Shown here in pieces: positions 14,696 to 63,915 of a stretch of DNA of 64,000 nt (position 1 is its first letter; each line of letters begins with the position of its first letter). The stretch comes from an uncultured bacterium (GTDB lineage Bacteria; Desulfobacterota_D; UBA1144; Nemesobacterales; UBA2774): the NCBI GenBank assembly GCA_963705505.1, contig CAVPJU010000008.1:129774-193773 (forward strand). Reading direction: 5' to 3'. The position numbers and the translations under genes were made by a program. The notes beneath the pieces are model-generated. The model worked only from the letters and a program-made list of their open reading frames with translations, was not told the origin of the DNA and did not search any database.

Positions 14696-14702
14696 CGTCA
14701 AT

Positions 14703-14855: not shown

Positions 14856-14945
14856 TAAAAAAGCAAGGGATAAATGAAATTCCCCAATTATAGTTAGATT
14901 GTTGCAATCCACGATAGGTGCAGGTTGCGCGCTCGCTAGTAGTTC

Positions 14946-45801: not shown

Positions 45802-45965
45802 AGGCGTGAACTCACTTAAGCGTGATATGAGCTGAATATCTTAAGCATTTACCCCTTATAATAGCATATAGCAAACGGGGCTCTTAACTAATAAGTCTAA
45901 GAAATTATATAAAAAAGCAAGCCCTTTTATTTTTCACAGACGAGACTGTCGAGTGATGAGAGTGT

Positions 45966-47213: not shown

Positions 47214-47965
47214 CTTACGCCTAACCTGCGCCTGATTGTACGCGGAATATTACGCAACAGAATATATAAGGGGAATGTTTTCGTCAGCATAAGATCGAAG
47301 AGCTTCTCCCCCCTTAAGTAGTAAGCGTCCACACGCTCGAGAGCGTAGAGACGGCTTTCCTCCGTCAATAAGCCTAGTTTATCAGAACAGGCGCATTTAA
47401 AATTCTGTCCCGCGATTTCAAGACTCTTCTCGTCATACCTGCCATAGGGATAGGCGAAGGACAAAACAGGGACACCCAGATTGTCCTCGATGATATCCTT
47501 AGATCCCTTTATCTCGTATCCGACGGCGGCCGTATCGAGTGCGGTAAGGTCCGGGTGCGAAATAGTGTGAGCGCCGAAATCGATCCCTGCGTCTCTCATT
47601 ACTTTTATCTCTCCCCAGCTTAACATCTCGCTCCCGCTGAGCGGCGGCAGACGGTCATCCGGGCCCGATTTATGTGAGTCGCCCACGGTGAGAAATACAG
47701 TAGCCGTCATGCCGTGCTTCTCCAGGACAGGAAATGCCTCTTCGCATACGCTCCTGTAACCGTCGTCGAAGGTTACGACGAAAGATTTGTCCGGGAAGGG
47801 TTTACGCTCACGGATCAGCTCCGCTGCGTCGGTCAATTTAACCGTCCTGTAACCGTTACGGCGGAGCTTCTCCATTGAACGCCTGAACAATTCCGGGCTG
47901 AAAGATATAACCGAGCGGCTGTCGTCTATTTTATGAAAAGTCAAAACCGGAAGATATGCGGCCAT
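47210..47965 (-). CDS. Polysaccharide deacetylase
   Basis: TFDDGY, HTISH, FAYPYG motifs; overlaps the GT4 by 4 bp. Confidence 0.9.
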   Translation of the reverse strand: MAAYLPVLTFHKIDDSRSVISFSPELFRRSMEKLRRNGYRTVKLTDAAELIRERKPFPDKSFVVTFDDGYRSVCEEAFPVLEKHGMTATVFLTVGDSHKSGPDDRLPPLSGSEMLSWGEIKVMRDAGIDFGAHTISHPDLTALDTAAVGYEIKGSKDIIEDNLGVPVLSFAYPYGRYDEKSLEIAGQNFKCACSDKLGLLTEESRLYALERVDAYYLRGEKLFDLMLTKTFPLYILLRNIPRTIRRRLGVR

Positions 47966-48200
47966 CTGTTTTTCACATCCTTACAATTGCTCGATCAGAC
48001 AGTAGTATCTAACAGAGCGCGAATAAAGGCAATATTGATTCAATTTGAAACCATTGCAAGGAATCCGAAACTGGAATTTCCAAACCATTCATGCGGGAAT
48101 TCGTCCCCAGTGTTCCATTAAGTTATTGTGAGGATGAAGGCATTCCGGGAATGACTATTTAAACAAAGGGAAACGGTTGATCCTTATGAATCACTTCATT

Positions 48201-49784: not shown

Positions 49785-49846
49785 AGCGGCTCTCCATAAT
49801 CGGTCGTGTGTGTTCAGTGCGAAATACAATACCGGACGGCAGCATA

Positions 49847-50866
49847 TTACTTCCCCGCCTTTCCGGGGAGCCTCCCTAAAAACCTCCTGGCATTCAGACG
49901 ATAGCGTATTGCCGCCCACCTCATAAGCAAAACGTCCGGGAGCCACAGCGTCTTTCTTTTTCTTCCCAGCTGTTTACTGATAAAAGAGAAGAAATTATGA
50001 ACCCGCCACATGATTTTTTCGGGGGCAGTAATCGGACGGGCAAGCCCTTCAGTCTCGTATCCGAGTTCCCGAAGAAGGTCACCGGCCACGGACTCGAAAA
50101 TAACCCGGTCGCCTGCGGGCATCTCTTTTTTCCACCTCCCCTCATCCGAGCTGCCCATTCCCTTCATGGAATTGGTTATCTCCGATAGATTACCGTACAT
50201 GAGCGACGCGGCCTCCGGCTGGATCTGATTAACATTTAATACCTTCTCCGAGTAAGGTTCATCAAGGAACCCGCATACGACACCCATCGTTTCGCGGGTG
50301 TGATCGATAAGGGACTCAAAACTCACTTCAATATACCTGCCCGGTCCGGCCTCCCTGCCCGCACGACGGCCTGCGCTCACAAGCCGCTTCCAGGAAGTGG
50401 CGGCAACGAAAACATTTCCCGGTCCGTACCACCTCCCCATCGAGATGAGCGCAACGTCCCTCCCGTCGCGATAGATGTGAATTATCTTGCAGGACGGGAA
50501 TAACTCGATCAGAGTCGGTATCTCCGCCAAATACTGCGGAGTCTTGTCCCCCCAGCGGGGCTTGTTTTCTTTGCGCGCCCATTCCTCGAAAATCCGGGAT
50601 ACTATCTCCGCATAGCTGCGGCAGCCGGCAAACGAAGAGGGGTCGAGCGAAAGCCCGTAAGCCTTTACCCAATGGAGGTTCAGTATGATCTCGGCCAGTC
50701 TCACGGCTTCCCTGTCATTCTTCGGATTGCCGTAAGCTTTATAAAGCCAGGGGATGAACTGGGACTCCTGAGGGAACGTTATGTTCGGATGGGAACGCAG
50801 CAGGTCTCTTATCAGCTTCTCGCCGCTCTTGGGATACCCTACGATAAATATAGGGGATTTGGTCAT
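49847..50866 (-). CDS. Sulfotransferase family protein
   Basis: PIFIVG.PKSG, WGDKTP, IHIYRDGRDV, GRWK motifs. Confidence 0.85.
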   Translation of the reverse strand: MTKSPIFIVGYPKSGEKLIRDLLRSHPNITFPQESQFIPWLYKAYGNPKNDREAVRLAEIILNLHWVKAYGLSLDPSSFAGCRSYAEIVSRIFEEWARKENKPRWGDKTPQYLAEIPTLIELFPSCKIIHIYRDGRDVALISMGRWYGPGNVFVAATSWKRLVSAGRRAGREAGPGRYIEVSFESLIDHTRETMGVVCGFLDEPYSEKVLNVNQIQPEAASLMYGNLSEITNSMKGMGSSDEGRWKKEMPAGDRVIFESVAGDLLRELGYETEGLARPITAPEKIMWRVHNFFSFISKQLGRKRKTLWLPDVLLMRWAAIRYRLNARRFLGRLPGKAGK

Positions 50867-50935
50867 GGTCGAAGTACCGTTTCCGGCTTATCCGGTCTCA
50901 ACTCCGCACACGCTACCCGATGCCTTACGCTTTCG

Positions 50936-51919
50936 TTACTCAATGAACTCCTTTTCGAGGAGCATCTTCCTCAAGCGTGAGTCGCCCGGCTTGACCGGGT
51001 ACCTGACTTGTTTTAAAACGACATCGCCGAAGTCAGTCCTGCATGTGGACATATAGGCGAACATCATGAGATAACGCGGCTTGACCGCATTCCTGCTCCC
51101 GTAATGAAAGCATGCGCTGTTGTCCAGGAAAAGCACCGTCCCCGCAGGGTAGCAAAGCTTAATCAATTCGCTTTCGGGAACTATAGAATAGACCTTATCA
51201 TCGGATACACGGTGACCCCCCATCCTGGTGTGATAATTACCGAGCCCTCTGCATACTTTCTCCGATACGGACTTGGGCAGAAAACAGAAAGGCCCCATCT
51301 CAATCGTTACATCCCTTAGCAGGACAATCGCATACGCCATGGGCTTGTCGTGATAATCGAGATGAAAGAGCTGGCTCGCCCTCAGGGGCGCATCGGATGA
51401 GTTATCGAATTTGTTCCAGGACTCTATCAGCCTGACGCCATAGGGCATGGAGTAGGAAAGCATGGGAATGAAGCCCAGGTAACTGCATATAGTCGAAAGA
51501 ACATCGGAAGAAGTCGCGAAGTTCAGAATCGACGGGTATTTCTCGAAATGCTCTTCCTTGATCAGCTCCTGAAAAAAGGGCCTTCCGAAATCCTGACGCT
51601 TCACTCCGCCGCGTTCCTCTATGATCTTGTCAGACTCCGCAAGCAGCTCCCGAAGATAAGGCAGCTTCCCCGAAGTATCGATAGCCCATCCGTCTTTGAT
51701 CTCGTTGACGGGAGCGGACGGATTTCCGTTCTCCTCGATGAGCTTTCTGAAATTCTCTTGGTATTGCCTCTTTCTATACTCATGGTATTTGCCGAACCGC
51801 AGGGTGTTATAGGCCCTTGCGATCCTCGTCGTATTATCGACTCCTACCGCCTGCATCGAATCGCGCTCAAGGAGTTTTGCAACCGGTTTAATCGCGGCGT
51901 CCATGGCTTTTCCGATCAT
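50936..51919 (-). CDS. Putative PhyH-like Fe(II)/2OG dioxygenase
   Basis: SQLFHLD (HxD), MGPF, GTVLF.D...FHYGSR...R distal His and Arg. Confidence 0.6.
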   Translation of the reverse strand: MIGKAMDAAIKPVAKLLERDSMQAVGVDNTTRIARAYNTLRFGKYHEYRKRQYQENFRKLIEENGNPSAPVNEIKDGWAIDTSGKLPYLRELLAESDKIIEERGGVKRQDFGRPFFQELIKEEHFEKYPSILNFATSSDVLSTICSYLGFIPMLSYSMPYGVRLIESWNKFDNSSDAPLRASQLFHLDYHDKPMAYAIVLLRDVTIEMGPFCFLPKSVSEKVCRGLGNYHTRMGGHRVSDDKVYSIVPESELIKLCYPAGTVLFLDNSACFHYGSRNAVKPRYLMMFAYMSTCRTDFGDVVLKQVRYPVKPGDSRLRKMLLEKEFIE

Positions 51920-51954
51920 TTCATTCTCCCTCTCTCAATACTTCATTCCGAGTA

Positions 51955-53429
51955 CTAAACACCGATTGAGACAACCTTGGTCTCGAGGAATTCCTCAAGA
52001 CCCAGCCTGCCTCCTTCTTTCCCGAAGCCGCTGTGCTTGACCCCTCCGAAGGGTATATGCACCGCTCCGAGGCGGGCATTGTTTACCCCGACGAGCCCGT
52101 ACTCGAGCCCTTCCGACATCGCTATCGCCCTCGAATTATCGCGCGTATAGAAAAATGCGGCGAGCCCATAGGGGGAATCGTTGGCGCGGGAGAGGACCTC
52201 CTCGTCCGATTTGAACGTCGCGACAGGCGCCACGGGACCGAACGTCTCCTCATTCATTATAAGCATGTCGTGAGTTACGCGCGAGAGAATCGTCGGCTCG
52301 AAAGAAGAAACCTCTCGCAGAATTCCCCGTCCGTCAGGCGGCGCCCCCCGTTAAGGAGCCCGGCTCCTTTTGCAACGGCATCGCCGACATGTGCTTCCAC
52401 CTTCTCCATCCCCTCTTCGTCGATCAGGGGGCCCACGTCTACAGTCTCATCCAGCGGGTTCCCCGTCCTGAGCCTCTTCACAAGCCCCGTGAACGTCTCG
52501 GTGAATCGCTCGGAGACGGATTCATGGACGTATATTCGGTTAAGGGCGACACACGTCTGCCCCGAATTCTGGAATTTGGAGGCGACGGCATGCGAGGCAG
52601 CAAGCTCTATGTCCGCGTCCCCGAACACTATGAAAGGGGCGTGCCCGCCCAACTCGAGTGTAATCCTCTTTAAGTCCGCGGACGCGCCGCGCATGATCTT
52701 TCTCCCGACTTCGACCGAGCCGGTGAAGCTCACCTTCCTCACTTTCGGGTTTCTGAGGATCTCCTTCCCGACCTTGTCGGGATGGACGTGTAGTCACGAG
52801 GTTAGCGACGCCCGGACGGGATTCCGGCTTCCTCGAATAATTCGAATATGGCGATCGCCGATAGGGGCGTCTGCTCGGGGGGTTTTACGACGACCGTGCA
52901 GCCGGCAGCCAGGGCGGGTATTACAGGCCTCGTGATCCCCGCCGACGGGTAGTTCCAGATCGTGATTATTCCGGCTACCCCCACGGGCTGCTTTATAGCA
53001 TAAAAACGCCTGCCGGGGAGAGGTGAGGTGAATATTTCGCCCGAGACTACGTTTAGATTCTTCGGCGAAGTACTTTATAAACTCGGCGGAATACCCGATT
53101 TCGGCGCGCGATTCCCTTATCGGCTTCCCCTCTTCCATCGCTATTAATCTCGCAAGTTCCTCGCTCCGCCCGAGCATCAGGTCGCGTACCCTCAGGAGCA
53201 GGTCAGCGCGGTCCTTTGCGGGAAGCTTCGACCATGATGGGAAAGCGTCATACGCTGCCTCTATAGCTTTCTCCGTGTCACGGGCGTCCGCGTCGGGCAC
53301 AGAAGCGATTACTTCGCCCGTCGCCGGGTTCCTTACGGTGAAGCTCTTCCCCGTCCCGGCTTCGACCCATTTGCCGTCGATGTACATCCTTTGCACTTTC
53401 GTTTTTTTTGCTTTTAATTTGTCTTGCAC
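51955..53429 (-). pseudogene. GabD-like NAD(P)-dependent aldehyde dehydrogenase split by several frameshifts (possibly assembly errors)
   Basis: Colinear fragments in different frames carry WNYP, KPPEQTP, FTGS, LELGG, FQNSGQTC, EETFGP, PFGGVKHSG. Confidence 0.85.
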
Positions 53430-53461
53430 GACTTTTACCTTATTTTAATGTACACCGCCCT

Positions 53462-53860
53462 TCAGGACTCGAGTATTTCTTTTAATATCTCGAGCTCCCG
53501 CTCTACATTCGATACGAGCTTTTCGAATAGTCCCGGCGGAGCGTTATCGGGCTCGGACTGAGTAAAATAATATGCTACCTCTCCGTTTTGACGAAGCTCG
53601 ACGAGACGCGAGGACGATTTTTGATAATGTCCGCCCTTTCCGAAGTAGAAATCGATGTTCCCATCTTCTTTCGCAGCCCCGACAAATAGGTCGATCACTC
53701 CCCGGGGCGTCTTTACGCGGTATATGTCGCCATCTTTCTCGGGCGCCTCGAGGGCAAAATCCACGGTCCAAAGGTGCAGGTTCTCAGGATCGGAGATGAA
53801 ATTCCACGCTTTATCGAATGTTGTATTAATAGTTACGCTCAAAGTTTTCGATCTCCTCAA
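53462..53860 (-). CDS. SRPBCC/polyketide cyclase-like protein
   Basis: SVTI.....AW.FISDPENL..W start and C-terminal EL..LK.ILE helix. Confidence 0.72.
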   Translation of the reverse strand: MRRSKTLSVTINTTFDKAWNFISDPENLHLWTVDFALEAPEKDGDIYRVKTPRGVIDLFVGAAKEDGNIDFYFGKGGHYQKSSSRLVELRQNGEVAYYFTQSEPDNAPPGLFEKLVSNVERELEILKEILES

Positions 53861-53947
53861 TCTTTCTCCCTCTCTTCAGACAAATTACCATGAAGGATGC
53901 GTCTGGCAGAGCTAACTGTATTAATTCTGTACGTGATGCCGCGAGCA

Positions 53948-54892
53948 TCATACATGGCCGAATGTATGCGTTTCGAGAATTGCAAACGCATTTTGCCGCA
54001 GGTGCTCGACATTCGTAGTCCCCGTCAGCACTGTGGATACCGCAGGGTGCGACATGGCGAACCTGTATGCCTCAGCGGGACGCGAAAACTCCCGCTCCGT
54101 TATGACCGAATTTTCACTGCCGCTTCTGAGGCCGGATCTCATCGAACCCCACCCATTCTGCGGGTTCAACCCCAGGATATTGCTTCGAACATCCTTTTGA
54201 GATAAGGCAATATCTCTTGCTGCGGCCATGCATATTACTCCCACGTTCTTCTTCGCAGCCAGATGCAAAATACCGTCTCCTGCTGTAGGATTCGCCGGAC
54301 TATAAGCGACCATAACGGAATCGAACAAGTTGTCGGATAGAGCCATTTGGAGCATCTCATGATTCCTGTCTACGATCGTTGACTCCGAGATGCCTAAAAA
54401 GCGGAACTTTCCGTCATCCCTCAACTTCTCCAGAGTCGGCATAAGGGAATCCGTAACCGAGCGGTAGATACCAGGCGTCACCGCATGGAATTGGATAAGA
54501 TCGACCGTATCCACACGGAGCTTCTTTAAACTCCGCTCTACCGATTTAACAACGTCTTCGGGTCTTGAAATCCGACCGTGCGTAACAGGAAGAAACTTTG
54601 TAGCTATTATGAATCTATCCCGCGGAACGTTCCTCAACACCCCTCCCAGTATTGCTTCACTCTCCCCATATGATGGGGAGGTATCAAAGAGATTAATTCC
54701 AATATCAAGAGCGCTCCGGACCAGATCCATGATTTGCACTTTGAGCGCGAAACTCCTCTGGCCGAAGCGGTTTACCCCTCCCGAGCCGAGCGACAGAGAC
54801 GACACCATGAGCCCGGTCCGTCCTAATTCCTTGTTCCGCATGGGTAGTTCTTCTCTCCGCATGACCGTCATAAATTTCCTTTCTGTTATCAC
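53948..54892 (-). CDS. Aldo/keto reductase
   Basis: LGRTGL.VS, GINLFDTS..YG, IATK, SL.KL..D.VDL.Q.H; start may be ATG 54841. Confidence 0.88.
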   Translation of the reverse strand: MITERKFMTVMRREELPMRNKELGRTGLMVSSLSLGSGGVNRFGQRSFALKVQIMDLVRSALDIGINLFDTSPSYGESEAILGGVLRNVPRDRFIIATKFLPVTHGRISRPEDVVKSVERSLKKLRVDTVDLIQFHAVTPGIYRSVTDSLMPTLEKLRDDGKFRFLGISESTIVDRNHEMLQMALSDNLFDSVMVAYSPANPTAGDGILHLAAKKNVGVICMAAARDIALSQKDVRSNILGLNPQNGWGSMRSGLRSGSENSVITEREFSRPAEAYRFAMSHPAVSTVLTGTTNVEHLRQNAFAILETHTFGHV

Positions 54893-55911
54893 AGCTCTCT
54901 TAATTTTTTCCGAACTCTAAAACCTGGCATTACCTCTCTTGCAAAGAGTTCAGTAGACCTTAGGCAGAGCGCCTGGCTCTGGGTAATGAAGTTAAGCGAG
55001 CACAGGAGATAAGTAATCTCCAATCTCCCGGCGAGCTCTTTAATGCCGCTGGCTACAGTCTCGGGAGAGCCCAACAGGAGAAAATCGTCCAGAAACCGGT
55101 CGAAGCTGAAGTTCTCCTCGCCGCCGTACTTCGCGATGAGAGCCGCTTTCAGGTCCGGCGCGCGGTACTTAATGAATTCCATGAAAGGCCCTTCCATTTC
55201 CCGCCTCGCTTTCTCGTCCGTATCCGATACGTAAATGAACCGGTTGACGATGAACTCGGGCGCACTGCCGTTGCGATTTTTCCGGACAAGATTTCCGAAG
55301 TAGGTTTGAGCGGTTTTCTCAAGCTCAGAAGACGTCCTGGTGGCCCCCGTTATCGCGGAGTAACCCTTCTCCGCAGCAAAAAGAAGCGTCTCCTCCGATA
55401 CCGCGACGAGCGAGACCGGCGGATGGGGTTTCTGCAAGGGCTTGGGGTACACAGAGACTTCGGGGATCCGGTGGAATTCCCCCTCGTATGAAAACCGCTC
55501 CTCGGTCCAGGCTTTAATTATTATCTCGATCGCTTCCCTGAATCTCTCCCTCGTCTCGAAAAGCGGCGAGTGAAACGCCAGATGGCACTCTTCATCGAGG
55601 CTCGCCCGCGCGGCGCCGAAGTCGAGACGCCCCCCGCTCAATATATCGAGGGTCGCGGTGTCCTCGGCGAGATGTATAGGGTGGTCGAGGGACAATATGC
55701 GCGCCGCCGTGCCGATGCGTATCCTTTTTGTCCTCGCAGCCAGCGCCGCAGCCAGGCTCAGGGGGGAGGAATAGAGGAGGTCCCCGTGTCTGAAATGCCT
55801 TTCCCCGAGAACCACGGAATCAAAGCCGAGCTCCTCCGCATAAACCATCTGGTCAAGGATTTCGTGATAGCTCCCGTCCCGCGTGCCCATTATGAATAAG
55901 CCGAATTTCAT
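54889..55911 (-). CDS. Luciferase-like (LLM class) flavin-dependent monooxygenase
   Basis: MKFG, AEELGFDS, ERHF, HPIHLAE..ATLD.LSGGR, PKPLQKPHPP. Confidence 0.9.
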   Translation of the reverse strand: MKFGLFIMGTRDGSYHEILDQMVYAEELGFDSVVLGERHFRHGDLLYSSPLSLAAALAARTKRIRIGTAARILSLDHPIHLAEDTATLDILSGGRLDFGAARASLDEECHLAFHSPLFETRERFREAIEIIIKAWTEERFSYEGEFHRIPEVSVYPKPLQKPHPPVSLVAVSEETLLFAAEKGYSAITGATRTSSELEKTAQTYFGNLVRKNRNGSAPEFIVNRFIYVSDTDEKARREMEGPFMEFIKYRAPDLKAALIAKYGGEENFSFDRFLDDFLLLGSPETVASGIKELAGRLEITYLLCSLNFITQSQALCLRSTELFAREVMPGFRVRKKLREL

Positions 55912-55963
55912 TTATCCCTCTATGTACCGCCCCTTTTTATCCGGGTGACGGCCGCACCGGGTT

Positions 55964-56959
55964 TTAAATGTCTTTTAAGTGAGGCAGCATGTGTTCGGTA
56001 AACAACCTCATGGAGTTAAGGCATTTCTCGTGCTCAACCGTATAGTAATTGAATGTTAAAATCAGACTCCTGAGATCGATTTCGTCCTTTAAACGCATGA
56101 TCTTCTTCATGCAGGAATCGGGAGTGCCGAATATGCAGACATCGTTGAATAGCAGGTCGTACGTAATCTCATCGTCCGGAAGAAATAAAAAATCCCTGAT
56201 CACGGTGTTCTTCCTGTGGATGAAACCCATGATCGTATCCCTCGTGTCCTCCACGGCCTTCCCGTCGGTCTCCGCAACATAGATAAAACGATTGACCGGG
56301 TGCACAATGTTCCTGCCGCTGTTTCCGTTGAGGAGCGCATTATACCTCTCCTGAGTATTCCTGAGCACGGGGACGGTTTGAGCGCCGGCCAGGAGCAGGG
56401 GTAATCCCATTTCCGCGCCGAATTTCAAGGTTTCCTGACTGATCCCCACCAGATAAATCGGGGGATGGGGTCTCTGGACGGGCTTGGGCTCTACAGAAAT
56501 ATCCGAAATGTTGTAGTAGCCGTTATAAGAGAAGCTTTCCTCCGTCCATGCCTTAATGATGACATCGATCGACTGCTCGAAGCGGCCTCTCGTCTCTTCC
56601 GTTCTTACGCCGAACGCGTTCTGGTAGAGCTCATTCTCCCCGATCCGCGCAACACCGAGGTCGAGCCTCCCGCCCGATATAATATCCACTGTCGCCGCTC
56701 CTTCCGCGACGTGTATGGGGTGGTCGAGCGGAAGAAGCCTCGCTCCCATCCCGATACGAATCCGCTCCGTGACCGAGGCTATGTATGACGCGGCTACGAA
56801 GGGAGACGAAAAGAAGTTCCTCCCTTCATGGTCGGGATGAAAATGCCTCTCCCTCAGCCATACGGAATCGAACCCCGCCTCGTCCGCGTAGCGGACCTGG
56901 TCTATCAGATCAGCATGATCGGACGTTGCTGATCCTGTCGCGTAAAAACCTATCTTCAA
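55964..56959 (-). CDS. Luciferase-like (LLM class) flavin-dependent monooxygenase
   Basis: MKIG, ADEAGFDSVW.RERHF, HPIHVAE..ATVD..SGGR, PKPVQRPHPP. Confidence 0.9.
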   Translation of the reverse strand: MKIGFYATGSATSDHADLIDQVRYADEAGFDSVWLRERHFHPDHEGRNFFSSPFVAASYIASVTERIRIGMGARLLPLDHPIHVAEGAATVDIISGGRLDLGVARIGENELYQNAFGVRTEETRGRFEQSIDVIIKAWTEESFSYNGYYNISDISVEPKPVQRPHPPIYLVGISQETLKFGAEMGLPLLLAGAQTVPVLRNTQERYNALLNGNSGRNIVHPVNRFIYVAETDGKAVEDTRDTIMGFIHRKNTVIRDFLFLPDDEITYDLLFNDVCIFGTPDSCMKKIMRLKDEIDLRSLILTFNYYTVEHEKCLNSMRLFTEHMLPHLKDI

Positions 56960-57067
56960 ATAAATCCTCCGAATTCATTACTCACCCGGGCTCCGCTCGG
57001 TCAGCCGAAATACGTTTAAGTCTCCTTTCCAATGCGTCCGGTTCGAACTTTCAGAAGTAATCCGGCT

Positions 57068-57931
57068 TCAGCGAACCCGCTCGGGGTAGCTCCGCGATGA
57101 CGCTTCTATCCTGAGCCCCTTCACCTCATTGACGAATGCGGTCAGGTGGGACGACAGGGCGTCCAATAGTCTCCTCCCTTTCTCGCGCGTGGCTTCCGAG
57201 TCCCGCTTTTTCTCGTGCGCTGCAGGGCTTACGTACTCAAAATCGTCCAGACCTAAAGTAATATTCTCAGCGCCGTTAAACCCCACTGTTATACCCGTCC
57301 CGGCTCTCTTGTAAAATGATTCTCCGAGCCATTCAGGCGCATGCACCCTGTAGCCGTGAGACAGGAAATTATCGGTTTTAAACCTTTCCTCCATGAGAGA
57401 CATCGCCACCGAACACTCTATATCGCTTGAAAGACGATCGGGAGCCGAACCCATGATCTCCATTGCCTGCTTGTTTTCCCTCCCGCCGTAAAACGCCACG
57501 AACGCCCCGGTCTTCGTGCGGAGCGACAGCAGGACCTCCTCCGCAACGGCGACGTTCGAGCTGTGGAGCGACACGAATATGAGCTTATTGAACCCGTGAT
57601 AGATAAGGGACCGGCTGATCTCTTCGAGTATGAGTCTGTAGGTTTCCGCCCTGAACGATATCGTGCCGCACCCTTCCCCTTCCCTGCCGAAGTGCTCGGG
57701 CGCGTACCCGAACGGCATTAGCGGTGTATGGAGGACGTCCGTTTCGCGGGCTGTGCGCTCGACGACCGCTCCGCTGACGAGCCCATCGAGACCGAGAGGC
57801 GTAAAAGGGTTGCCGTGCCTCTCGCAGCTCCCCATCGGAATCAATATCATGTCCTGCCCTTCCCTCACCCTCTTCTGAATATCCCCCGTCCCAAGCTCCT
57901 GTATATTAAGGATTTTCTTTCCATTTTTCAT
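57068..57931 (-). CDS. Creatininase family amidohydrolase
   Basis: PMGSCERHG..PLGLD, GTIS, SLHSSN (GHGGN-like), IECS (ETS-like), AT.EKG. Confidence 0.85.
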   Translation of the reverse strand: MKNGKKILNIQELGTGDIQKRVREGQDMILIPMGSCERHGNPFTPLGLDGLVSGAVVERTARETDVLHTPLMPFGYAPEHFGREGEGCGTISFRAETYRLILEEISRSLIYHGFNKLIFVSLHSSNVAVAEEVLLSLRTKTGAFVAFYGGRENKQAMEIMGSAPDRLSSDIECSVAMSLMEERFKTDNFLSHGYRVHAPEWLGESFYKRAGTGITVGFNGAENITLGLDDFEYVSPAAHEKKRDSEATREKGRRLLDALSSHLTAFVNEVKGLRIEASSRSYPERVR

Positions 57932-58059
57932 CTTTCAATTCTCCTCATAACGTATGATAACCGGCAGCATAATCATTGATGATAATTAAGTACTAATAGT
58001 CCTCACGCCGACTCAATATTTATACCATTTATGATCATACTATAACAAGAAATTCCGCA

Positions 58060-59214
58060 TCATCCCCCGTCTAATACATCTTGAAGTGCTTTTTCCGTCT
58101 CGTCAACCATCTTTTCAATGCCGAAATTTCTTACAATTATGTTCCGTATTTTCAGCGGGTCCATGTCAGAGAGCCCGTCGAGCATAGTCCTCATACCATT
58201 CGCAAGAAGTCGAGGGTCACCCGGCGGGACCGCTATTCCCGATTCTCCCACAATCCTTGCGGAGTCCCCTACGTCCGTGACCACACACGGTTTGCCGCAC
58301 GCCATCGCCTCTCCTATGACGTTCGGGAAACCCTCGCTATAAGACGAGGAACAGAGAACATCGATAGAGTTGAGAACAGTCGGCATATCTTTTTTTGCCC
58401 CCGCCCAAATCAGATGATCACGTAATCCCAAATCCCGGCTCATGAGCTCCAGTTTTTTCCTATATGCCTTATCTCCGTCCCCTATGCAAACAAAACGAAC
58501 ATCTCTCCGTTCCGTCAATAGCCGGGAGCATGCTTCCAGGAACGTGATATGCCCCTTAACCAAATCCAGACGGGCAATTACGCCTATGAGCGCCTCGTTT
58601 CCGCAAACATCCCATTCCCTCCGCAGCCGCTCCCGTGCTTCGGGATCCGGCTTGAAGTCATCCGTATCGATACCGTTATCGATGACCAGCCCTTTAGCGC
58701 ACCTGTAACCTGTTTTTACACGGCTCGCCAGTCCTGCTTCCGAATTAGCGATTATAAGGGGAACGAAGGACGAAATCCACTTGTTTATATAGAGTGCCGT
58801 TGAATCATTGCGAGAGTAGCTTCTCGGTCCAGTTGCCGGTAAAGAGCCTCGGACACCCCATACGAGTTTAGTGCCGGACGTCGTGCTGACGGCCAGCCAT
58901 GATATGAACCTCGCGGCATGACCGCTAAAACTGTAGAGGATTTGAACCTCTTCTTTCTCCAGAATCCTTCTTAATTCGAGTGTTGCTTCGATCAAACCCA
59001 TAACCCCAGTGAAAATATTTCCGGGTTTCTGTGCAAGAAGAGTCTTTATTCGTATCGGTTCCCCGCCCCAGATGTGCTCCCAATGCGTATCGCTTTCATA
59101 AAGTGCGAGCACGGATACGTCGTGCCCCCTCTTTTTCAATCGAGGAGCAAGGTATGAAAGCTGGCGTATGACGCCTCCCATTCCCAAATTTTGAATGAAG
59201 ATAAGGATTCTCAT
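58060..59214 (-). CDS. Glycosyltransferase family 4
   Basis: NGID, ARL..VKGH, EGFPNVIGEAMACG, TDVG; ATG 59214 chosen (ORF track 59310). Confidence 0.9.
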   Translation of the reverse strand: MRILIFIQNLGMGGVIRQLSYLAPRLKKRGHDVSVLALYESDTHWEHIWGGEPIRIKTLLAQKPGNIFTGVMGLIEATLELRRILEKEEVQILYSFSGHAARFISWLAVSTTSGTKLVWGVRGSLPATGPRSYSRNDSTALYINKWISSFVPLIIANSEAGLASRVKTGYRCAKGLVIDNGIDTDDFKPDPEARERLRREWDVCGNEALIGVIARLDLVKGHITFLEACSRLLTERRDVRFVCIGDGDKAYRKKLELMSRDLGLRDHLIWAGAKKDMPTVLNSIDVLCSSSYSEGFPNVIGEAMACGKPCVVTDVGDSARIVGESGIAVPPGDPRLLANGMRTMLDGLSDMDPLKIRNIIVRNFGIEKMVDETEKALQDVLDGG

Positions 59215-59434
59215 CGAAATCCCTCGCAGGACATTAGTCCAGGTTAATTTACGCACAAGATGGCCGGGAAGACGCGTAATACCCCCGTCCCTCATCACAA
59301 CCAAATTCACTGAGAAAAACTCATCACTACCGGATATAATTAATATACAATACTCAACAAACCGGCGTCTATTGATGGACAGGCGAAAGTCTGTTATAGA
59401 TATTAGCGTTTACAACTTCCTTTAGGCCAATCAC

Positions 59435-59508
59435 GTCCCCGTAGCTCAGAAGGATAGAGCACAGGATTCCTAATCCTGAGGCCGGAGGTTCGAATCCTCT
59501 CGGGGACG
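59435..59508 (+). tRNA. tRNA-Arg (anticodon CCT)
   Basis: Acceptor stem GTCCCCG/CGGGGAC, anticodon arm CAGGA-TTCCTAA-TCCTG, GGTTCGAATCC; CCA not encoded. Confidence 0.96.
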
Positions 59509-59802
59509 CAGCACTTCCCGAAGTACAGTAGCAACGTTGCATTTAGCCATCGGCGTCCGGTTGCTCTATTCATCGCAACCGTTCTCTCGGGGACGCAACT
59601 TCTTCCGAAGCACATTGACGCTGTTGCAATTAACCAATGGTGTCCGATTCCTCCTATTCGTCGAAATCGTTCTCTCGGGGACGCACACACATAGTGTGAT
59701 TTTCGATTTCCGCCATCTCCTCTGCCGTACCGTTATGCATGACCGTGACCGTTCATCCTGAGACTGCTGAAGGAGGCACACATTCCCCGAAGTACGGTGA
59801 CC
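59497..59802 (+). repeat. tRNA-3'-end-anchored array of ~87-93 bp units
   Basis: Exact CTCTCGGGGACGCA at 59497, 59584 and 59672; degenerate fourth unit start near 59776 (GCACACATTCCCCGAAGTAC). Confidence 0.9.
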
Positions 59803-59862
59803 ATTTGGTTTGAAATTTTAAAAATATAATTAAGCGGTCGGTAGAAAACCTTTAACTAATCG

Positions 59863-60816
59863 TTATAGGGCTTGTTCATCATGTTGTTCCAGCCACTCCA
59901 GCATTTTGCTAACACTTCCGGTGGCCAGGGCAATGCTCGTATCCGCCGCGCCATAATACATGCGGATGATATCACCGCCGGGTTCAAGGGTATAACCGCA
60001 AGGAAAGACTACGTTGCCTACATCCCCGGACTGCTCGTACTGTTGTTCCGGGGCAAAGAACCATTCGTTGCTGCGTTTCAGGCAGAGCTCCGGTGTATGT
60101 AAATCAAACAGAGCCAGTCCGAGCCGGTAAATGCTGCCGCTCGCTGTCTGACGTACACCGTGGTAAATCACCAGCCAGCCCTGCGGGGTTTGTATCGGCG
60201 GGGGGGAGAGGCCTATTTTATTCGCATCCCACCACGCACCACGGCGGGCTACAAGCATCAGCTTGTGGTTGCCCCAATGTCGAAGATCCGGCGAGTAGGA
60301 TATCCACATGTGCGCGCGGGGAGCACTGACAGGACGATGGATCAAGGCCCAAAGGCCGTCAATACGATGAGGCAGCAAGGCCGCATCTTTATTTTCCGGC
60401 GTCATGATCACTCCGTAACGCTCGAAGCTGGCGAAATCTTCTGTAAACGCCAGGGCCACGCCCGGACCGTCGCGTGTGAAGGCGGTATAGGCAATGGCAT
60501 ACTTCCTTAATTCGGGAACGAAGGTAATGCGCGGGTCTTCAATACCCCAAAGTTCTTCCGGGTAGCGCTCGGGATCAGCCAATAGTGAAGGCTGGGGATC
60601 AATCTGCCATTTATCCACGCCATTGGCGGAACGGGCCACACAAAAGTGAGAATGCCCCCGCCGATCCTCCACACGACATAAGAGCAGTGTGGTCCCGTCC
60701 GGCAGCAATGTGGCACCGGGGTTAAAAACGCTATGGACCGGATACGGCCAATCGGCGGCGGTCAAGATCGGATTAAGTTCGTGACGGTGAAAGAGTTCAG
60801 AATATTTATTGCTCAT
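59863..60816 (-). CDS. GH130-like glycoside phosphorylase/hydrolase
   Basis: NPIL, VFNPGA, EDPRI, NKDA, HRP, YHGV, NVVFPCG, YYGAAD motifs. Confidence 0.88.
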   Translation of the reverse strand: MSNKYSELFHRHELNPILTAADWPYPVHSVFNPGATLLPDGTTLLLCRVEDRRGHSHFCVARSANGVDKWQIDPQPSLLADPERYPEELWGIEDPRITFVPELRKYAIAYTAFTRDGPGVALAFTEDFASFERYGVIMTPENKDAALLPHRIDGLWALIHRPVSAPRAHMWISYSPDLRHWGNHKLMLVARRGAWWDANKIGLSPPPIQTPQGWLVIYHGVRQTASGSIYRLGLALFDLHTPELCLKRSNEWFFAPEQQYEQSGDVGNVVFPCGYTLEPGGDIIRMYYGAADTSIALATGSVSKMLEWLEQHDEQAL

Positions 60817-63092
60817 TTAGATAGTGCCTCCACTGTTAGAATAGTACCCTCAGCCAGGCGCAGCTCCAGCAGGGCCTGGAGAAAGGCAAGCGTGGACTCC
60901 GCGCCCTGATTCTCGTTCGGACGGTCCGGATGCAATCCGTCCCGGCAACCGCCCGTCGTCGGGTCGTATATGGAAAGGTTTAAATCGTTGCGCCCCAGGA
61001 ACCACTCGAAAGCACGCCGGGCTTCCCTGCGCCAGCGCTTGTCTCCAGTGCTCCGGTAAGCTTCGAGGCAGGCTGAGACCATGGTTTGCGCCTCTACCGG
61101 CTGCTGATCGAAGCGGGCGCGCTCGGAGCCCCGCTTATAAAAACCGTTGGAGCCGATAGGGATGAAATGACCTCCCGGCCCGGCAGCACGCTGCAAGTCG
61201 GCCAGCCAACCGAGCGACTCCAGCCCGGCTTCGGTCATGGCGTTATTCGGGATCCACTGACCGCACATGAGCATGGCCTGCGGCAAAACGGCGTTGCAAT
61301 ATGACATCTCATCTTCATACCAGCGCCATTCGTCCGAGCGGCTGTTTTGATATAAGGCCAGCAATCGCCCGGCCAATTCATCCCGGACCTGGCCAGCCCT
61401 GCTGTCACCGGAATACCGCCGTAGATACTCGTGGATGCCGATCAGCGTGAATGCCCATGCACGCGGGCTGGTCGTGTCGAGAATGGCCGGCAGCGCCTGC
61501 TCGAACACCATGCCTGCTATACTCCGGTAGGCCGCCATGCTGGATCTGCCTAATACGGTGGACAACGCCAATAACGCGCGGCCATGGCTGTCTTCCGAAC
61601 CGATATCTTCCAGCCAATGGCGCTGATAATCCAGAAAGTTGCGAAACCGTCCGGTCTCGGCATTGAAGGCATACAAGATAAAAGCGAGATAACGGGGAGC
61701 CAGTTCCAACGCCTCTCCGTTGCCCAGTTCATCCAGGAGCGTACTCACTATCAGAGCGCGGGCGTTGTCGTCGGTGGTGTAGCCCTCGCGATAGTTGGGC
61801 ACCGTGAAAAGGGCGTGTTGCAGCATGCCGGTCTCGTCCGTCATGTGGCGCAGGTGATCGAGTTTGAGAGGGGGCAGTTCACTCCGACGCTCGTCGTTCG
61901 ATTTACCGGCAAATCCAGGAGGAATGAAATGCCGGCGTTCGGATCGGGCGCGTTCAAAACTCTCCATGTAGAGTCGCGCCACCTGCGGCCAAATCATCTC
62001 CCGGCCAAACAGATAAGCCCGCTTGCGCATGGCGTGGCGCTCGGACTCGTTGTCGAGCAGGTAGATCACCTCCCCGGCCAGAGCCGCCGGATCTTTGAAC
62101 GGCACCAGCGTGCCGCGACCTTCGGCCAGCATCTCTTCCGCATACCAATATGGTGTCGAAATCACTGCCTTGCCCGCCCCCAGCGTGTAGGCCAGGGTGC
62201 CGGAAACGATCTGCGCTTCGTTGAGATAGGGTGTGATGTAAATGTCCGCCGCGCCAATAAACTCTATAAGCTCCTCCAAACTGACAAAGCGGTTGTAGAA
62301 GATCACGTGATCTTCCACACCTTTTTCCTGAGCCTGCCATTGCAGGGACAACCTGTACGTTTCGCCCTCGTGCTGAATCACGTGGGGATGTGTCGCGCCA
62401 ACTATCATGTACACCACGTTCGGGTAGCGTTCCACGATGGCAGGCAAGGCGGCAATGACGTTTTCTATTCCCTTGTTGGACGAGAGCAAGCCGAAACTGA
62501 GCAAAACGATCTTGCCCTCCACGCCAAAAAGGTCTTTGTGGTAACTCGGATCCACAAACGGCAAATCGGGAATTCCGTGAGGGATCAGATCGATCTTCTC
62601 CGGCAGCACACCATAGACCTCCTGCAGAAATTCCGCGCCGCGCTCGCTCATGACGACCAATCGGTCGGACAGGGCGGCAACTTCTTCCAGCACCCGCCGC
62701 TGATCGGGACCGGGGTCTTGCAAAATGGTATGCAGAGTCGTGACGATGGGCATACGCAATTCGCGTAAGAGGGCCAGGATATGACTGCCTGCCTTCCCGC
62801 CGAAGATGCCGTATTCGAATTGCAGGCACACCAGGTCGACATTATTGATATTCAGGAAGTCGGCGGCGCGGCGGTAGGAGTCAATGTTCTTCTCGGTAAG
62901 TTCGAACCGGACGCGGGGCGGGTATGAGTATCCCCCATCGATGTCGTTGACCGGTAGAGCAATGCACGTCGTTCCAGTGTATTCGGCAGCGATAGCCTCA
63001 CACAAGTCTGTCGTGAACGTGGCGATGCCGCACTGACGCGGCAGGTAATTCCCGATGAATGCAACGCGGTTAATGGTTAAATGGTCGTCCAT
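60813..63092 (-). CDS. GT4 glycosyltransferase fused to a C-terminal (alpha/alpha)-barrel-like domain
   Basis: PRQCGIATF, FGLL..NKG, SGTL; C-terminal GYTTDDNARAL, FDQQP, NQGAEST; ATG 63092 with AGGAG SD; overlaps GH130 by 4 bp. Confidence 0.88.
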   Translation of the reverse strand: MDDHLTINRVAFIGNYLPRQCGIATFTTDLCEAIAAEYTGTTCIALPVNDIDGGYSYPPRVRFELTEKNIDSYRRAADFLNINNVDLVCLQFEYGIFGGKAGSHILALLRELRMPIVTTLHTILQDPGPDQRRVLEEVAALSDRLVVMSERGAEFLQEVYGVLPEKIDLIPHGIPDLPFVDPSYHKDLFGVEGKIVLLSFGLLSSNKGIENVIAALPAIVERYPNVVYMIVGATHPHVIQHEGETYRLSLQWQAQEKGVEDHVIFYNRFVSLEELIEFIGAADIYITPYLNEAQIVSGTLAYTLGAGKAVISTPYWYAEEMLAEGRGTLVPFKDPAALAGEVIYLLDNESERHAMRKRAYLFGREMIWPQVARLYMESFERARSERRHFIPPGFAGKSNDERRSELPPLKLDHLRHMTDETGMLQHALFTVPNYREGYTTDDNARALIVSTLLDELGNGEALELAPRYLAFILYAFNAETGRFRNFLDYQRHWLEDIGSEDSHGRALLALSTVLGRSSMAAYRSIAGMVFEQALPAILDTTSPRAWAFTLIGIHEYLRRYSGDSRAGQVRDELAGRLLALYQNSRSDEWRWYEDEMSYCNAVLPQAMLMCGQWIPNNAMTEAGLESLGWLADLQRAAGPGGHFIPIGSNGFYKRGSERARFDQQPVEAQTMVSACLEAYRSTGDKRWRREARRAFEWFLGRNDLNLSIYDPTTGGCRDGLHPDRPNENQGAESTLAFLQALLELRLAEGTILTVEALSK

Positions 63093-63523
63093 GACGAGTT
63101 TCTCCTTCCTAAAATCCCCTGTTGCTATCTCCTCGGCCAATTGGTATAAACAGGCGGTCAATAACCTAACACCTCTGCCATATCCAGACAAAATTGGGAT
63201 AGAGTGTTTACTTTTGGGAAACCGAAGTGCGAAGGATTATATCATTAATCTAAATAATACACCCGCTATCGGCATCAGATCGTGCCGTGTGCGGGAGAAT
63301 ATCCGACTTTCTTCTTTAAGAAGTCCAATCTTTGAAGTGTCGATATCGTTCGTATTAGAATACCTTCTCATTTATTGGGTTCAAAACATTATTCCAGCCG
63401 GGCTTCATCGGATCAGATTAAATTCCAGACACAACTCTTCCAGTTTCCGGATATATGCAGTCATCTGAAATAATTTACTTGAAGAGTACGATTAAGCAGA
63501 GTGTTAGGCGGCATATGCAGCGG

Positions 63524-63745
63524 CTATCTCTTCTTGTTCGCAAAAAGCAGGAGCGCGCCTCCAACCACTATCGCCCCCACGCCTGCCCATACCGGGACGT
63601 TGACCGTTTCCTTGTCCTTTACCGACAGCTCGATCGGGCCCAGCTTGGCCTCGTGAGTCTCCTTGGTGTAGCTGAAACTGCCATACACCAGCCCCAGGAT
63701 GCCGGCCACTATCAGTACTATTGCTGCAATCTTGACTGAATTCAT
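63524..63745 (-). CDS. Small two-TM membrane protein
   Basis: 73 aa, two hydrophobic helices around a KLGPIELSV loop; GAGGA SD. Confidence 0.75.
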   Translation of the reverse strand: MNSVKIAAIVLIVAGILGLVYGSFSYTKETHEAKLGPIELSVKDKETVNVPVWAGVGAIVVGGALLLFANKKR

Positions 63746-63806
63746 CTCGTGTCCTCCTCTCTATCTTTTTCTCTTGAGTAGAAATTTTCAATGCTAAGAC
63801 GACAGG

Positions 63807-63915
63807 CAGTAACACTATTGCAATCAGTGAAGGGCGTCCGATTCCCCGCTCGCTCGGAATCGTACAAACACACTACGTGTGCTCGGGGAAGCACACATTA
63901 TTCGAAGCAATTGAT
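63807..63915 (+). repeat. Distal copy of the tRNA-associated repeat (3' half of one unit, then a degenerate new unit start)
   Basis: 63807-63843 is 31/37 identical to the motif after tRNA-Glu; CTCGGGGAAGCACACA at 63882 matches 59674-59689 with 1 mismatch. Confidence 0.8.

Follow-up and report, generated by a model that had tools for sequence, protein, structure and literature searches.

The window, that is, the whole stretch of 64,000 nucleotides that was analysed, contains a tRNA-Arg gene with the anticodon CCT, followed directly and in the same orientation by a short tandem array of two full units and a truncated third. The following features make up this locus.

59376–59404, plus strand: promoter-like site upstream of tRNA-Arg (TGGACA, 17 nt, GATATT; motif scan)
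59435–59508/9, plus strand: tRNA-Arg, anticodon CCT (ARAGORN; Rfam tRNA model, 70 bits)
59497–59510, plus strand: first copy of the 14-mer CTCTCGGGGACGCA, the 3′ end of tRNA-Arg (exact search)
59511–59597, plus strand: unit 1, subtype A, 87 nt (profile E = 5.7e-22), the last 14 nt of which (59584–59597) are the second copy of the 14-mer
59598–59685, plus strand: unit 2, subtype B, 88 nt (profile E = 7.4e-25), the last 14 nt of which (59672–59685) are the third copy
59682–59708, plus strand: terminator-like hairpin, CACAC-ATA-GTGTG followed by a T-rich tail, which overlaps the last 14-mer
59767–59806, plus strand: degenerate 14-mer (8 of 14 matches by eye) and truncated start of another unit (profile positions 4–28; weak, E = 5.7)

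The tRNA-Arg gene has no encoded CCA, and CA follows the discriminator G. Parsed on the Rfam alignment, the 14-mer consists of four nucleotides of the 3′ strand of the T-stem, the seven-nucleotide 3′ strand of the acceptor stem, the discriminator G and two trailer nucleotides (CA). The preliminary description placed exact copies of it at 59497, 59584 and 59672, with periods of 87 and 88, and both the exact search and TRF (59497–59690, period 87, 2.2 copies, 77% matches) bear this out. When up to two mismatches are allowed, the window holds five matches compared with a mean of 0.95 in shuffled sequences, and none of 100 shuffles reached five; the two inexact matches lie at 14684, which is the 3′ end of a tRNA-Glu gene, and at 20354. 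The interiors of units 1 and 2 had been described as homologous and that of a third unit as different. Units 1 and 2 are indeed 73% identical over 70 nt without gaps (76% for the gapped interiors), and the stretch 59686–59766 is unrelated to either. The degenerate fourth start that had been proposed also exists (CTGAAGGAGGCACA, 59767–59780), although its distance from the third copy is 95 nt rather than 93; the sequence directly after it, CATTCCCCGAAGTACGGT, matches the beginning of unit 1 at 83% identity over 18 nt.

The site at 59376–59404 is the only promoter-like site on the plus strand between 59200 and 60000, with none inside the units, and the number of sites is not above that in shuffles. 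Identical hexamers occur at the equivalent place in a related genome (L084, below), and no such site was flagged at the locus of another (L029). The CACAC-ATA-GTGTG hairpin, the sequence of which is retained in both of these relatives, may be where the transcription unit ends; one terminator-like site was found where 0.9 would be expected, which is not significant, and the scan flagged no intrinsic terminator behind tRNA-Glu or at the L029 and L084 loci. Open reading frames cross the array on both strands (59537–59761, plus; 59403–59690 and 59566–59781, minus). Protein coding was considered and rejected: the lengths of orthologous units differ by 1–5 nt (87–92 nt), so that no reading frame is kept across the array.

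Related loci and further copies in the window

A genome scan with a 26-mer query, which proved unspecific, returned at least 120 loci, mostly from Alphaproteobacteria and Brevibacillus, 80 of them with long flanks. Among the matches listed, only three loci (L029, L084 and L093; contigs JBGSVA010000056.1, CAVWAZ010000002.1 and CAWGRW010000009.1) carry further exact copies of the 12-mer within 300 nt downstream, and only these three, again among the matches listed, have a tRNA body that matches that of the window (one difference, by eye). In each, the same tRNA is followed by homologous units (E = 1e-14 to 1e-25 against the unit profile), from two to at least three in number and of two alternating subtypes. 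The comparison extends over 64 kb in the source genome and over short segments in the three relatives; the L084 and L093 loci comprise 300 nt on each side, and the L093 array runs off its locus. That three independent public assemblies share this arrangement speaks against an artefact of assembly. The order of subtypes is A then B in the window and in L084, A′–B after a decayed unit in L029, and B–A–B, cut at the end, in L093. Because the paralogous subtypes A then B are common to them, the array is older than the split of the four genomes and was not stacked by separate insertions.

The B interiors of orthologous units are 84–98% identical (85–88% between unit 2 of the window and the B units of the relatives). 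Identities among the A interiors of the window, L084 and L093 are 75–85%, with 76–79% to the divergent A′ interior of L029, and unit 1 of the window is 85% identical to unit 1 of L084. Between subtypes, A and B interiors are 67–80% identical. For comparison, the neighbouring histidine-kinase gene shows identities of 88.8, 92.0 and 62.5% at codon positions 1, 2 and 3 between the window and L029. Since the interiors are conserved better than third codon positions, they are not decaying scars, and these identities are signs of purifying selection. Alignable DNA begins with all three relatives at 59369, by the promoter-like site, and stops at 59685–59710, by the hairpin right behind the last unit; the flanking intergenic DNA is not alignable with that of the relatives, and on either side the L029 locus has flanks unlike those of the window.

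Each unit closes with an invariant block of 17–18 nt, (C)GTTCTCTCGGGGACGCA, in which the last 14 nt are the tRNA 3′ end and two trailer bases. The last 17 columns are invariant in eight units from four genomes and reach 3 nt beyond the part shared with the tRNA. Decayed junctions are also present: one in L029 lacks the 14-mer, one in L093 keeps 7 nt and the fourth in the window keeps 8 of the 14.

Further members of the unit family occur elsewhere in the window.

14621–14696, plus strand: tRNA-Glu(TTC) with the 3′ end CCCTCGGGGACGCG (ARAGORN)
14702–14760, plus strand: copy right behind tRNA-Glu(TTC), profile positions 5–63 (E = 7.9e-11)
14880–14928, plus strand: weak second partial copy 3′ of tRNA-Glu (E = 0.25; 73% over 30 nt)
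63807–63892, plus strand: solitary copy with no adjoining tRNA gene, profile positions 17–88 (E = 4.1e-8)

The copy behind tRNA-Glu is 80.7% identical over 88 nt to L084. It has neither the terminal 14-mer nor a distal repeat and ends, by eye, in a hairpin (CTTGC-GCAC-GCAAG) followed by CAATTTT, which the terminator scan did not flag. In the solitary copy the end is degenerate (CTCGGGGAAGCA) and a CACAC..GTGTG hairpin is inserted; the start of another unit comes next (by eye). With one of these copies lacking the tRNA-end block and the other not linked to a tRNA, the family does not consist strictly of tRNA trailer repeats.

Predicted RNA structure of the units

A hairpin with a stem of 7 bp precedes each copy of the 14-mer that closes a unit.

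59558–59581, plus strand: unit 1 hairpin, CGGTTGC, 10-nt loop, GCAACCG
59645–59669, plus strand: unit 2 hairpin, CGATTCC, 11-nt loop, GAAATCG, with one C/A mismatch

In an alignment of the 3′ halves of the units, comprising nine related sequences of two subtypes, this hairpin is paired in 90.7% of cells, compared with 26–58% in slid controls. Three of six pairs change on both sides in a compensatory manner, and the covariation score of 0.190 (0.129 in shuffles) was reached by one of 500 shuffles; since the nine sequences are related and fall into two subtypes, few independent events underlie it.

A second helix can form between GCGTCC and the GGACGC of the 14-mer. In unit 1 the GCGTCC segment (59553–59558) precedes the hairpin and shares its last C with the hairpin arm, and the MFE structure of 59552–59597 contains both the hairpin and this helix. 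It pairs in 94% of cells and is broken in mid-helix in two A-type units that carry GCGACC; no covariation is seen, because one side never varies. RNAalifold on whole units recovers only this 6-bp helix, having missed the hairpin because its arms are misaligned in the whole-unit alignment. A tRNA-like closing stem, TTCCCG/CGGGGA, is paired in 80% of cells compared with 67–69% when slid by one column, shows no covariation and is present in the MFE structure of three of seven units. Unusual thermodynamic stability was also considered and rejected, with z = −0.12 for the region relative to shuffles and z from −2.07 to +1.06 for single units.

Interpretation of the array

The preliminary description pointed to the tRNA-linked repeats of E. 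coli tyrT, and these prove to be the right comparison. The same script, run on the tyrT–tyrV region of E. coli K-12, finds the 19-nt tRNA-Tyr end six times with a period of about 178. In the passages of PMC8144298 that treat tRNA-linked repeats (TLRs), E. coli is described as having 22 of them in 10 loci, with one to five per locus, the last 18–19 bp of which repeat exactly the upstream tRNA or rRNA 3′ end. They include the 178-bp repeats of tyrT/tyrV (the RttR/tpr region) and rrA, rrB and rrF after 5S rRNA, and stand, like the array, downstream of a stable-RNA gene, in its orientation and as one to a few units, each closed by an exact copy of the upstream 3′ end (PMC8144298). In the window the units begin at 59511, directly behind tRNA-Arg on the plus strand, an exact 14-nt copy (12 nt of mature tRNA and two trailer nucleotides) closes both, and two full units and one truncated unit are present, with two to at least three in the relatives. 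By eye, a small hairpin lies just before the copy in both systems. The same passages date the earliest account of TLRs, from E. coli, to 1978 and give a function only for three rRNA-linked ones (PMC8144298). The array differs in having a copy of 14 rather than 18–19 nt, CA in place of an encoded CCA, units of about 88 rather than about 178 nt in two alternating subtypes, a host from a distant phylum, and family members of which one ends in a hairpin behind another tRNA and one stands alone. A blastn search of 59511–59810 against 20,395 E. coli records gave no match, and membership among TLRs is therefore one of architecture and not of descent.

The array is thus probably of the TLR type, in a Thermodesulfobacteriota-like lineage, co-transcribed with the tRNA and cleaved where the tRNA end is mimicked. 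The tRNA-Arg(CCT) and units A and B would be made as one transcript from the promoter-like site of the tRNA. Indirect support comes from the lone plus-strand promoter-like site, which precedes the tRNA, from the lack of any inside the units and from homology that stops behind the last unit. Each copy of the tRNA end would, together with its hairpin, mimic the top of a tRNA, and the enzymes that cut behind the tRNA could also cut behind each unit, releasing discrete RNAs of about 88 nt. The direction of RNase E cleavage by the terminal repeat of TLRs is a proposal of the authors of PMC8144298. The array itself would arise and change by duplication or unequal exchange between copies and not through an integrase. 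Purifying selection on the interiors would imply some role for the released RNAs or for the entire trailer.

A parallel arrangement was found in a member of the Inquilinaceae (L027), in which two tandem units stand directly behind the same tRNA-Arg(CCT). They are predicted to fold into an acceptor-like stem and a T-arm-like hairpin, ending in CGGGGACGCCA, and here too a hairpin and a segment complementary to the copy precede the copy of the tRNA 3′ end. These units differ from those of the array in their length of 66 nt, their unrelated sequence and their 11-nt copy, which includes CCA; no integrase was found within 3 kb, and they are taken to be of independent origin. Further TLR-like copies occur in several alphaproteobacterial genomes among the matches listed from the same scan. 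A looser analogy is offered by 3′ETS-leuZ of E. coli, which acts as a sponge. This small RNA is cut from the 3′ external transcribed spacer of a tRNA (PMC8144298). Both it and the array would be functional RNA derived from a tRNA trailer, although 3′ETS-leuZ consists of one trailer in which the tRNA end is not repeated.

The array could instead be functionless and have arisen neutrally, the tRNA trailer having been duplicated locally in tandem by slippage or unequal crossing-over. The tandem layout with short direct repeats would fit, as would the decayed junctions and the unremarkable folding energies, and the two B copies of L093, which are 100% identical over 66 nt, point to recent duplication. 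Against this stand the orthologous B interiors, conserved well above the third codon positions of the neighbouring gene while the flanking intergenic DNA cannot be aligned, the 17 invariant final columns and the compensatory changes in the hairpin, and a functionless duplication appears unlikely. The preliminary description had held that a simple duplication would be indicated by a lack of further copies genome-wide, an invariant structure in relatives and no associated recombinase. The window does hold further copies and the number of units varies among relatives; the third expectation is borne out in that no recombinase was found in the ORFs scanned.

A second alternative is that the units are decayed copies of the whole tRNA-Arg gene, forming a tandem array of pseudo-tRNAs. 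The 74 nt of the tRNA and a 13-nt spacer add up to the period of 87, and some Brevibacillus tRNA-Arg genes can be aligned with the unit profile over nearly its full length (E = 0.03–0.13). By eye, the unit start TTCCCGAAGTACAG resembles GTCCCCGTAGCTCAG, and both GATTCCT, as seen in the anticodon loop, and the T-loop-like TCGAAATC occur in the B units. The Rfam tRNA model, however, has no match on the units up to E = 10, and ARAGORN sees the real tRNA only. Global alignment of the interiors with the tRNA body gave z from −0.7 to 2.45, with p < 0.05 in two of seven units and none strongly so. Decay from whole tRNA genes is thus quite unlikely as an account of what the units are; it concerns their origin, for which it is a possibility compatible with a TLR-type array.

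The reading put forward in the preliminary description, of minimal integrated units stacked on one another or of an array of recombinase cassettes, is not supported and is very improbable. A recombinase with the tRNA 3′ end as its target would have left the units behind, as scars or as miniature non-autonomous elements; the 14-mer would be the att core and the units empty or minimal cassettes. Tyrosine integrases that target tRNA genes likewise leave direct repeats of the tRNA 3′ end downstream of an intact tRNA, possibly in tandem, and tandem accretion of integrase-less elements is known. Here, too, direct repeats of the tRNA 3′ end bound each unit, copy number varies among relatives, the window and L029 differ on both flanks, and the family recurs behind tRNA-Glu, the 3′ end of which is nearly identical, and at one site that adjoins no tRNA. 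Integrases clearly use tRNA-Arg(CCT) in other genomes of the scan: partial copies of this gene at nine loci without a tRNA gene, among the matches listed, served as controls and span 40–46 nt, and an integrase arm-binding ORF lies near three of the six that have flanks. The array departs from this pattern in its copy of 14 nt, shorter than the usual att segment, which runs from the anticodon loop or T loop to the 3′ end; in its invariant block, which reaches 3–4 nt past the tRNA-identical part; and in its conserved interiors of about 74 nt, which are paralogous rather than unrelated cargo and follow an order common to four genomes. No integrase, recombinase or transposase was detected by Pfam in 49 ORFs of the 64-kb window (39 of the 74 of at least 140 aa and 10 near the array), none of these was found in two ORFs scanned downstream of the array in L029, the blastn search of 59511–59810 gave no match in phage or plasmid collections, and the copy behind tRNA-Glu lacks a distal repeat. 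An extra block of 13.5 kb upstream is of unremarkable base composition, and no direct repeats bounding it were found.

A feature of the DNA itself, such as repeated protein-binding sites or, on the minus strand, the 3′ end of a convergent GH130 operon, is scarcely credible: the GH130 gene (59863–60816, minus strand) does point towards the array, but in L029 the units are conserved next to different downstream genes (a GT20 gene), orthologous unit lengths vary without keeping a frame, and the compensatory hairpin changes point to a folded single strand. In CRISPR arrays, repeats of about 23–50 nt alternate with unrelated spacers, accompanied by cas genes or a leader. The repeat of 14 nt, the 'spacers' that are 76% identical to each other and the absence of any Cas family from the 49 ORFs agree with the earlier rejection of a CRISPR array. 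An integron cassette array was rejected as well: the attC core consensus is GTTRRRY, with an IntI integrase, and the boundary GTTCTCT has pyrimidines where purines are expected, no integrase being found in the 49 ORFs.

Wider distribution and significance

In a further, rather improbable extension of the TLR-type interpretation, 'self-releasing' cassettes for small RNAs would form a family across the whole lineage. Each would have as its core the conserved blocks CCGAAGYAYAGTRAC, TGTTGCA and GGCGTCCG, as read by eye from the alignments. It would be followed either by a plain terminal hairpin, as behind tRNA-Glu, or by a mimic of the tRNA top half, consisting of the hairpin and the tRNA-end copy paired with GCGTCC, and the tRNA-end processing machinery would excise each copy. 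Through exchange at the acceptor end CGGGGACGC, the cassettes would have passed from one tRNA gene to others with this end, and similar mimics would have arisen independently in Alphaproteobacteria, as in L027. If this were true, TLRs would be a general, convergent route to small RNAs or tRNA-end decoys produced in step with tRNA transcription.

The TLR architecture is present here in a lineage unrelated to E. coli. Its units bear marks of purifying selection, pairs of the hairpin change in a compensatory way, and members of the family also stand behind a second tRNA whose acceptor end is the same. Together with the TLR-like copies in alphaproteobacterial genomes, this points to a widespread and recurrent arrangement, in which case comparative genomics and metatranscriptomes could be used to probe what TLRs are for. 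A literature search for the phrase 'tRNA-linked repeats' found only E. coli small-RNA work, which is not proof of absence elsewhere. Among the matches listed for the shorter term 'tRNA-linked', the literature concerns mainly the short tandem repeats of Entamoeba and unrelated uses.

The repeat array and its relatives

The gene for tRNA-Arg(CCT) has no encoded CCA and carries CA after the discriminator G. Its terminal 14-mer, CTCTCGGGGACGCA, comprises 4 nt of the T stem, the 7-nt 3' strand of the acceptor stem, the discriminator and CA. Exact copies are found in the window at 59497, 59584 and 59672, and with up to two mismatches there are five matches, compared with a mean of 0.95 in shuffled sequences (five reached in none of 100 shuffles).

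59376–59404, + strand: promoter-like site upstream of tRNA-Arg(CCT)
59435–59508, + strand: tRNA-Arg(CCT) (ARAGORN; Rfam, 70 bits)
59511–59597, + strand: unit 1, homologous to unit 2
59598–59685, + strand: unit 2, homologous to unit 1

Tandem Repeats Finder describes the array with a period of 87, 2.2 copies and 77% matches. Units 1 and 2 are 73% identical without gaps (70 nt), and their interiors (the units less the terminal 14-mer copy) are 76% identical with gaps. The stretch behind the third 14-mer copy is unlike the units and starts with the hairpin CACAC-ATA-GTGTG; a degenerate 14-mer, recognized by eye at 59767–59780 (8 of 14 positions), is followed by ∼25 nt of the start of a further unit (unit profile E = 5.7). 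The preliminary description of the array was thus correct, with the 14-mer copies, the homology of the first two units, the different third stretch and the degenerate fourth start all being found.

A scan of genome contigs with the last 26 nt of tRNA-Arg(CCT), an unspecific query, returned at least 120 loci, mostly from Alphaproteobacteria and Brevibacillus. Among the matches listed, further exact 12-mer copies within 300 nt downstream occur in three loci: L029 (a Thermodesulfobacteriota MAG), L084 (‘uncultured delta proteobacterium’) and L093 (‘uncultured bacterium’). These are also the only loci among the matches listed in which the tRNA body, compared by eye, agrees with that of the window with one difference, and ARAGORN calls all three tRNAs tRNA-Arg(CCT). 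A profile built from the window units matches the units of these three loci with E values from 1e-14 to 1e-25, and in the unrelated loci among the matches listed the profile gave no match past the tRNA itself.

Two unit subtypes are distinguished, A (unit 1) and B (unit 2). A units end with ..GGCG(T/A)CCGGTT, the hairpin, AACCGTT and the 14-mer, and B units with ..GG(C/T)GTCCGATTCC, the loop TCCTATTCGTC or close variants, G(A/G)AATCGTT and the 14-mer. The order is A-B in the window and in L084, a decayed unit, A' (a divergent A unit) and B in L029, and a remnant followed by B-A-B in L093, where two B interiors are identical across 66 nt and the array continues past the end of the compared DNA. 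In L029, L084 and the window the array closes with a B unit, behind which lies the CACAC..GTGTG hairpin. The array thus predates the divergence of the window genome, L029, L084 and L093, and its copy number is still changing.

In each of the three relatives, alignable DNA starts at 59369, a short way upstream of the promoter-like site, and stops between 59685 and 59710. Orthologous B interiors of the window and L029 are 85% identical; in the neighbouring histidine-kinase gene of the same pair the protein is 84% identical and codon positions 1, 2 and 3 are 88.8, 92.0 and 62.5% identical, respectively (339 codons). Identity ranges from 84 to 98% for B–B interior pairs across all four genomes, from 75 to 85% for A–A pairs of the window, L084 and L093 (76–79% against the A' unit of L029) and from 67 to 80% for A–B pairs. 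The final 17 columns of an alignment of eight units, GTTCTCTCGGGGACGCA, are invariant; since this block exceeds the tRNA-shared part by 3 nt, copying from the tRNA alone is insufficient to explain the invariance. The 14-mer is absent at one L029 junction and is reduced to 7 nt at one L093 junction and to 8 of 14 positions at the fourth junction of the window.

Predicted RNA structure and comparison with E. coli

Each unit contains a predicted hairpin close to its end.

59558–59581, + strand: hairpin of unit 1, 7 bp, 2 nt upstream of the 14-mer copy
59645–59669, + strand: hairpin of unit 2, 7 bp, 2 nt upstream of the 14-mer copy

Six of the hairpin's pairs were evaluated across nine aligned 3' halves: 90.7% of the cells are paired, and three of the six pairs have changed on both sides (G-C/A-U, C-G/G-C and C-G/U-A). 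The covariation score of 0.190, compared with 0.129 in shuffles (reached by one of 500), reflects few independent events, the nine sequences being related and of two subtypes. Pairing falls to 26–58% when one strand is slid. The GCGTCC segment that directly precedes the hairpin on its 5' side is the complement of GGACGC in the 14-mer copy; here 94% of cells are paired, with no covariation and with the helix broken in two A units. Together, the helices give a stack of 12–13 bp on the 5' strand with a ∼10-nt bulge between them, an arrangement that could loosely mimic the acceptor/T-arm half of a tRNA. Support for a tRNA-like closing stem (TTCCCG/CGGGGA) in the units did not go beyond chance, the folding energies of the array and units are ordinary overall and no Rfam family was found for the units.

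According to PMC8144298, the tRNA-linked repeats (TLRs) of E. coli comprise 22 sequences at ten loci, one to five at each, in tRNA or rRNA operons, and their last 18–19 bp exactly repeat the 3' end of the gene immediately preceding them. The same paper gives no function for them except for three rRNA-linked repeats, which are small RNAs that arise by processing and bind Hfq and CsrA, and it proposes the repeated end as the feature that RNase E recognizes. In tyrT–tyrV of E. coli K-12, a script of our own finds the 19-nt end of tRNA-Tyr six times, with a period of ∼178 nt in the repeats. The window array has the same architecture, but its tRNA-end copy is shorter (14 nt) with CA where E. coli has CCA, its units are shorter and of two subtypes, and its lineage belongs to a distant phylum, sequence similarity to E. 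coli being absent. Its membership of the TLRs is one of architecture and not of descent.

The array is real and is best filed as a TLR array. From its anatomy, its conservation and this analogy, its probable mechanism has three parts: the tRNA promoter would drive a single transcript that extends through the units, each tRNA-end mimic would be followed by a cut, and conserved ∼88-nt RNAs would be released. Repeats of this kind have been known since 1978 (Egan and Landy 1978; Rudd 1999; both cited in PMC8144298) yet, according to that paper, lack an explanation.

Integrated elements as an alternative

A stack of integrated units or a tRNA-anchored cassette array had been preferred initially. 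A Pfam search of 49 window ORFs (39 out of 74 with a length of 140 aa or more, plus ten close to the array) identified ordinary chromosomal genes only and no recombination machinery; the array is flanked by a GT4 glycosyltransferase on one side and by GH130 and a GT4 fusion on the other. No match to the array was found in phages, plasmids or E. coli genomes. Among the matches listed, nine loci (L007, L012, L015, L016, L068, L074, L091, L103 and L107) contain the 26-nt query sequence without a tRNA gene. They have 40–46 nt in common with full tRNAs, from about the anticodon loop to the end (the tRNA-Arg 3' half), an ORF with an integrase arm-binding domain lies nearby in three of the six with long flanks, and all nine have the appearance of ordinary integrated-element borders. 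At L021, a phage-integrase-family gene lies directly behind an intact tRNA. Judged against these loci, the window array, with copies of 14 nt as opposed to 40–46 nt and with conserved, paralogous interiors, is something else, and with no recombinase among the 49 ORFs the integrase-scar or cassette reading is not supported.

Further copies and variable flanking DNA

The unit family extends beyond the array.

14492–14519, + strand: strong promoter-like site TTGACA-16-TATAGT of the tRNA-Lys/tRNA-Glu operon (scan)
14702–14760, + strand: unit-family copy directly behind tRNA-Glu(TTC), which lies at 14621–14696 (unit profile E = 7.9e-11)
14880–14928, + strand: weak partial unit copy behind tRNA-Glu (unit profile E = 0.25)
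63807–63892, + strand: solitary unit copy with an inserted CACAC..GTGTG hairpin (unit profile E = 4.1e-8)

The 3' end of tRNA-Glu(TTC), CCCTCGGGGACGCG, almost equals that of tRNA-Arg, the two tRNAs have an identical acceptor stem and T loop, and in both cases the unit begins equally far behind the tRNA. The tRNA-Glu copy stops within the loop of the unit hairpin; by eye, it ends with another hairpin and CAATTTT, which a terminator scan did not flag. Thus, the trailers of both tRNA transcription units in the window carry the unit family.

Among the matches listed, eight of the 116 loci with at least 250 nt downstream have their own tRNA end copied within 300 nt (at most one mismatch in the last 11 nt), against a chance expectation of ∼0.3 loci by our own rough calculation with equal base frequencies. 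Three of these are L029, L084 and L093. L027 (OZ252255.1, Inquilinaceae) has two tandem 66-nt units ∼130 nt behind tRNA-Arg, each folding into an acceptor-like stem and a T-arm-like hairpin with the end CGGGGACGCCA, like a small tRNA top half. Polysaccharide-synthesis genes lie downstream, and no integrase was found within 3 kb. It looks like an independent TLR-like array. L032 and L082 carry an inverted and then a direct copy of the tRNA T-arm and acceptor end (25–29 nt, one mismatch) 90–120 nt behind tRNA-Arg, forming a hairpin of ∼20 bp, and L067 and L003 (the latter near a contig end) each have a 12-nt copy of their tRNA end. TLR-like structures are thus recurrent among bacteria that are not related, and with a conserved example in a distant lineage and these signs of recurrence the function of TLRs could become approachable.

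The solitary unit copy has a degenerate end, and a 10-bp hairpin (GTGTGCT/AGCACAC, 63875–63898), which scores as terminator-like on the minus strand, holds its degenerate tRNA-end copy in the loop. A truncated unit start (59781–59806) and this solitary copy enclose a 4-kb block of the window, so the block may be an insertion into a longer array or an exchange within one. Downstream of the array the window has GH130 and the GT4 fusion (59810–63806), whereas L029 has a GT20, trehalose-phosphate-synthase-like gene (L029 3300–5245).

The histidine-kinase gene (window 44401–45801) is ∼200 nt from tRNA-Arg in all three relatives, whereas in the window alone a block of ∼13.5 kb (45850–59360) separates them. 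For this block, neither repeats at its borders nor a shift in composition nor an integrase was found. It encodes two GT4 glycosyltransferases, a polysaccharide deacetylase, a sulfotransferase, two luciferase-like monooxygenases, an aldo-keto reductase, a creatininase-like protein and proteins without a family. A 211-residue ORF within it (52794–53429, minus strand) aligns with the aldehyde dehydrogenase family over just its first 120 of 461 positions and may be a truncated gene.
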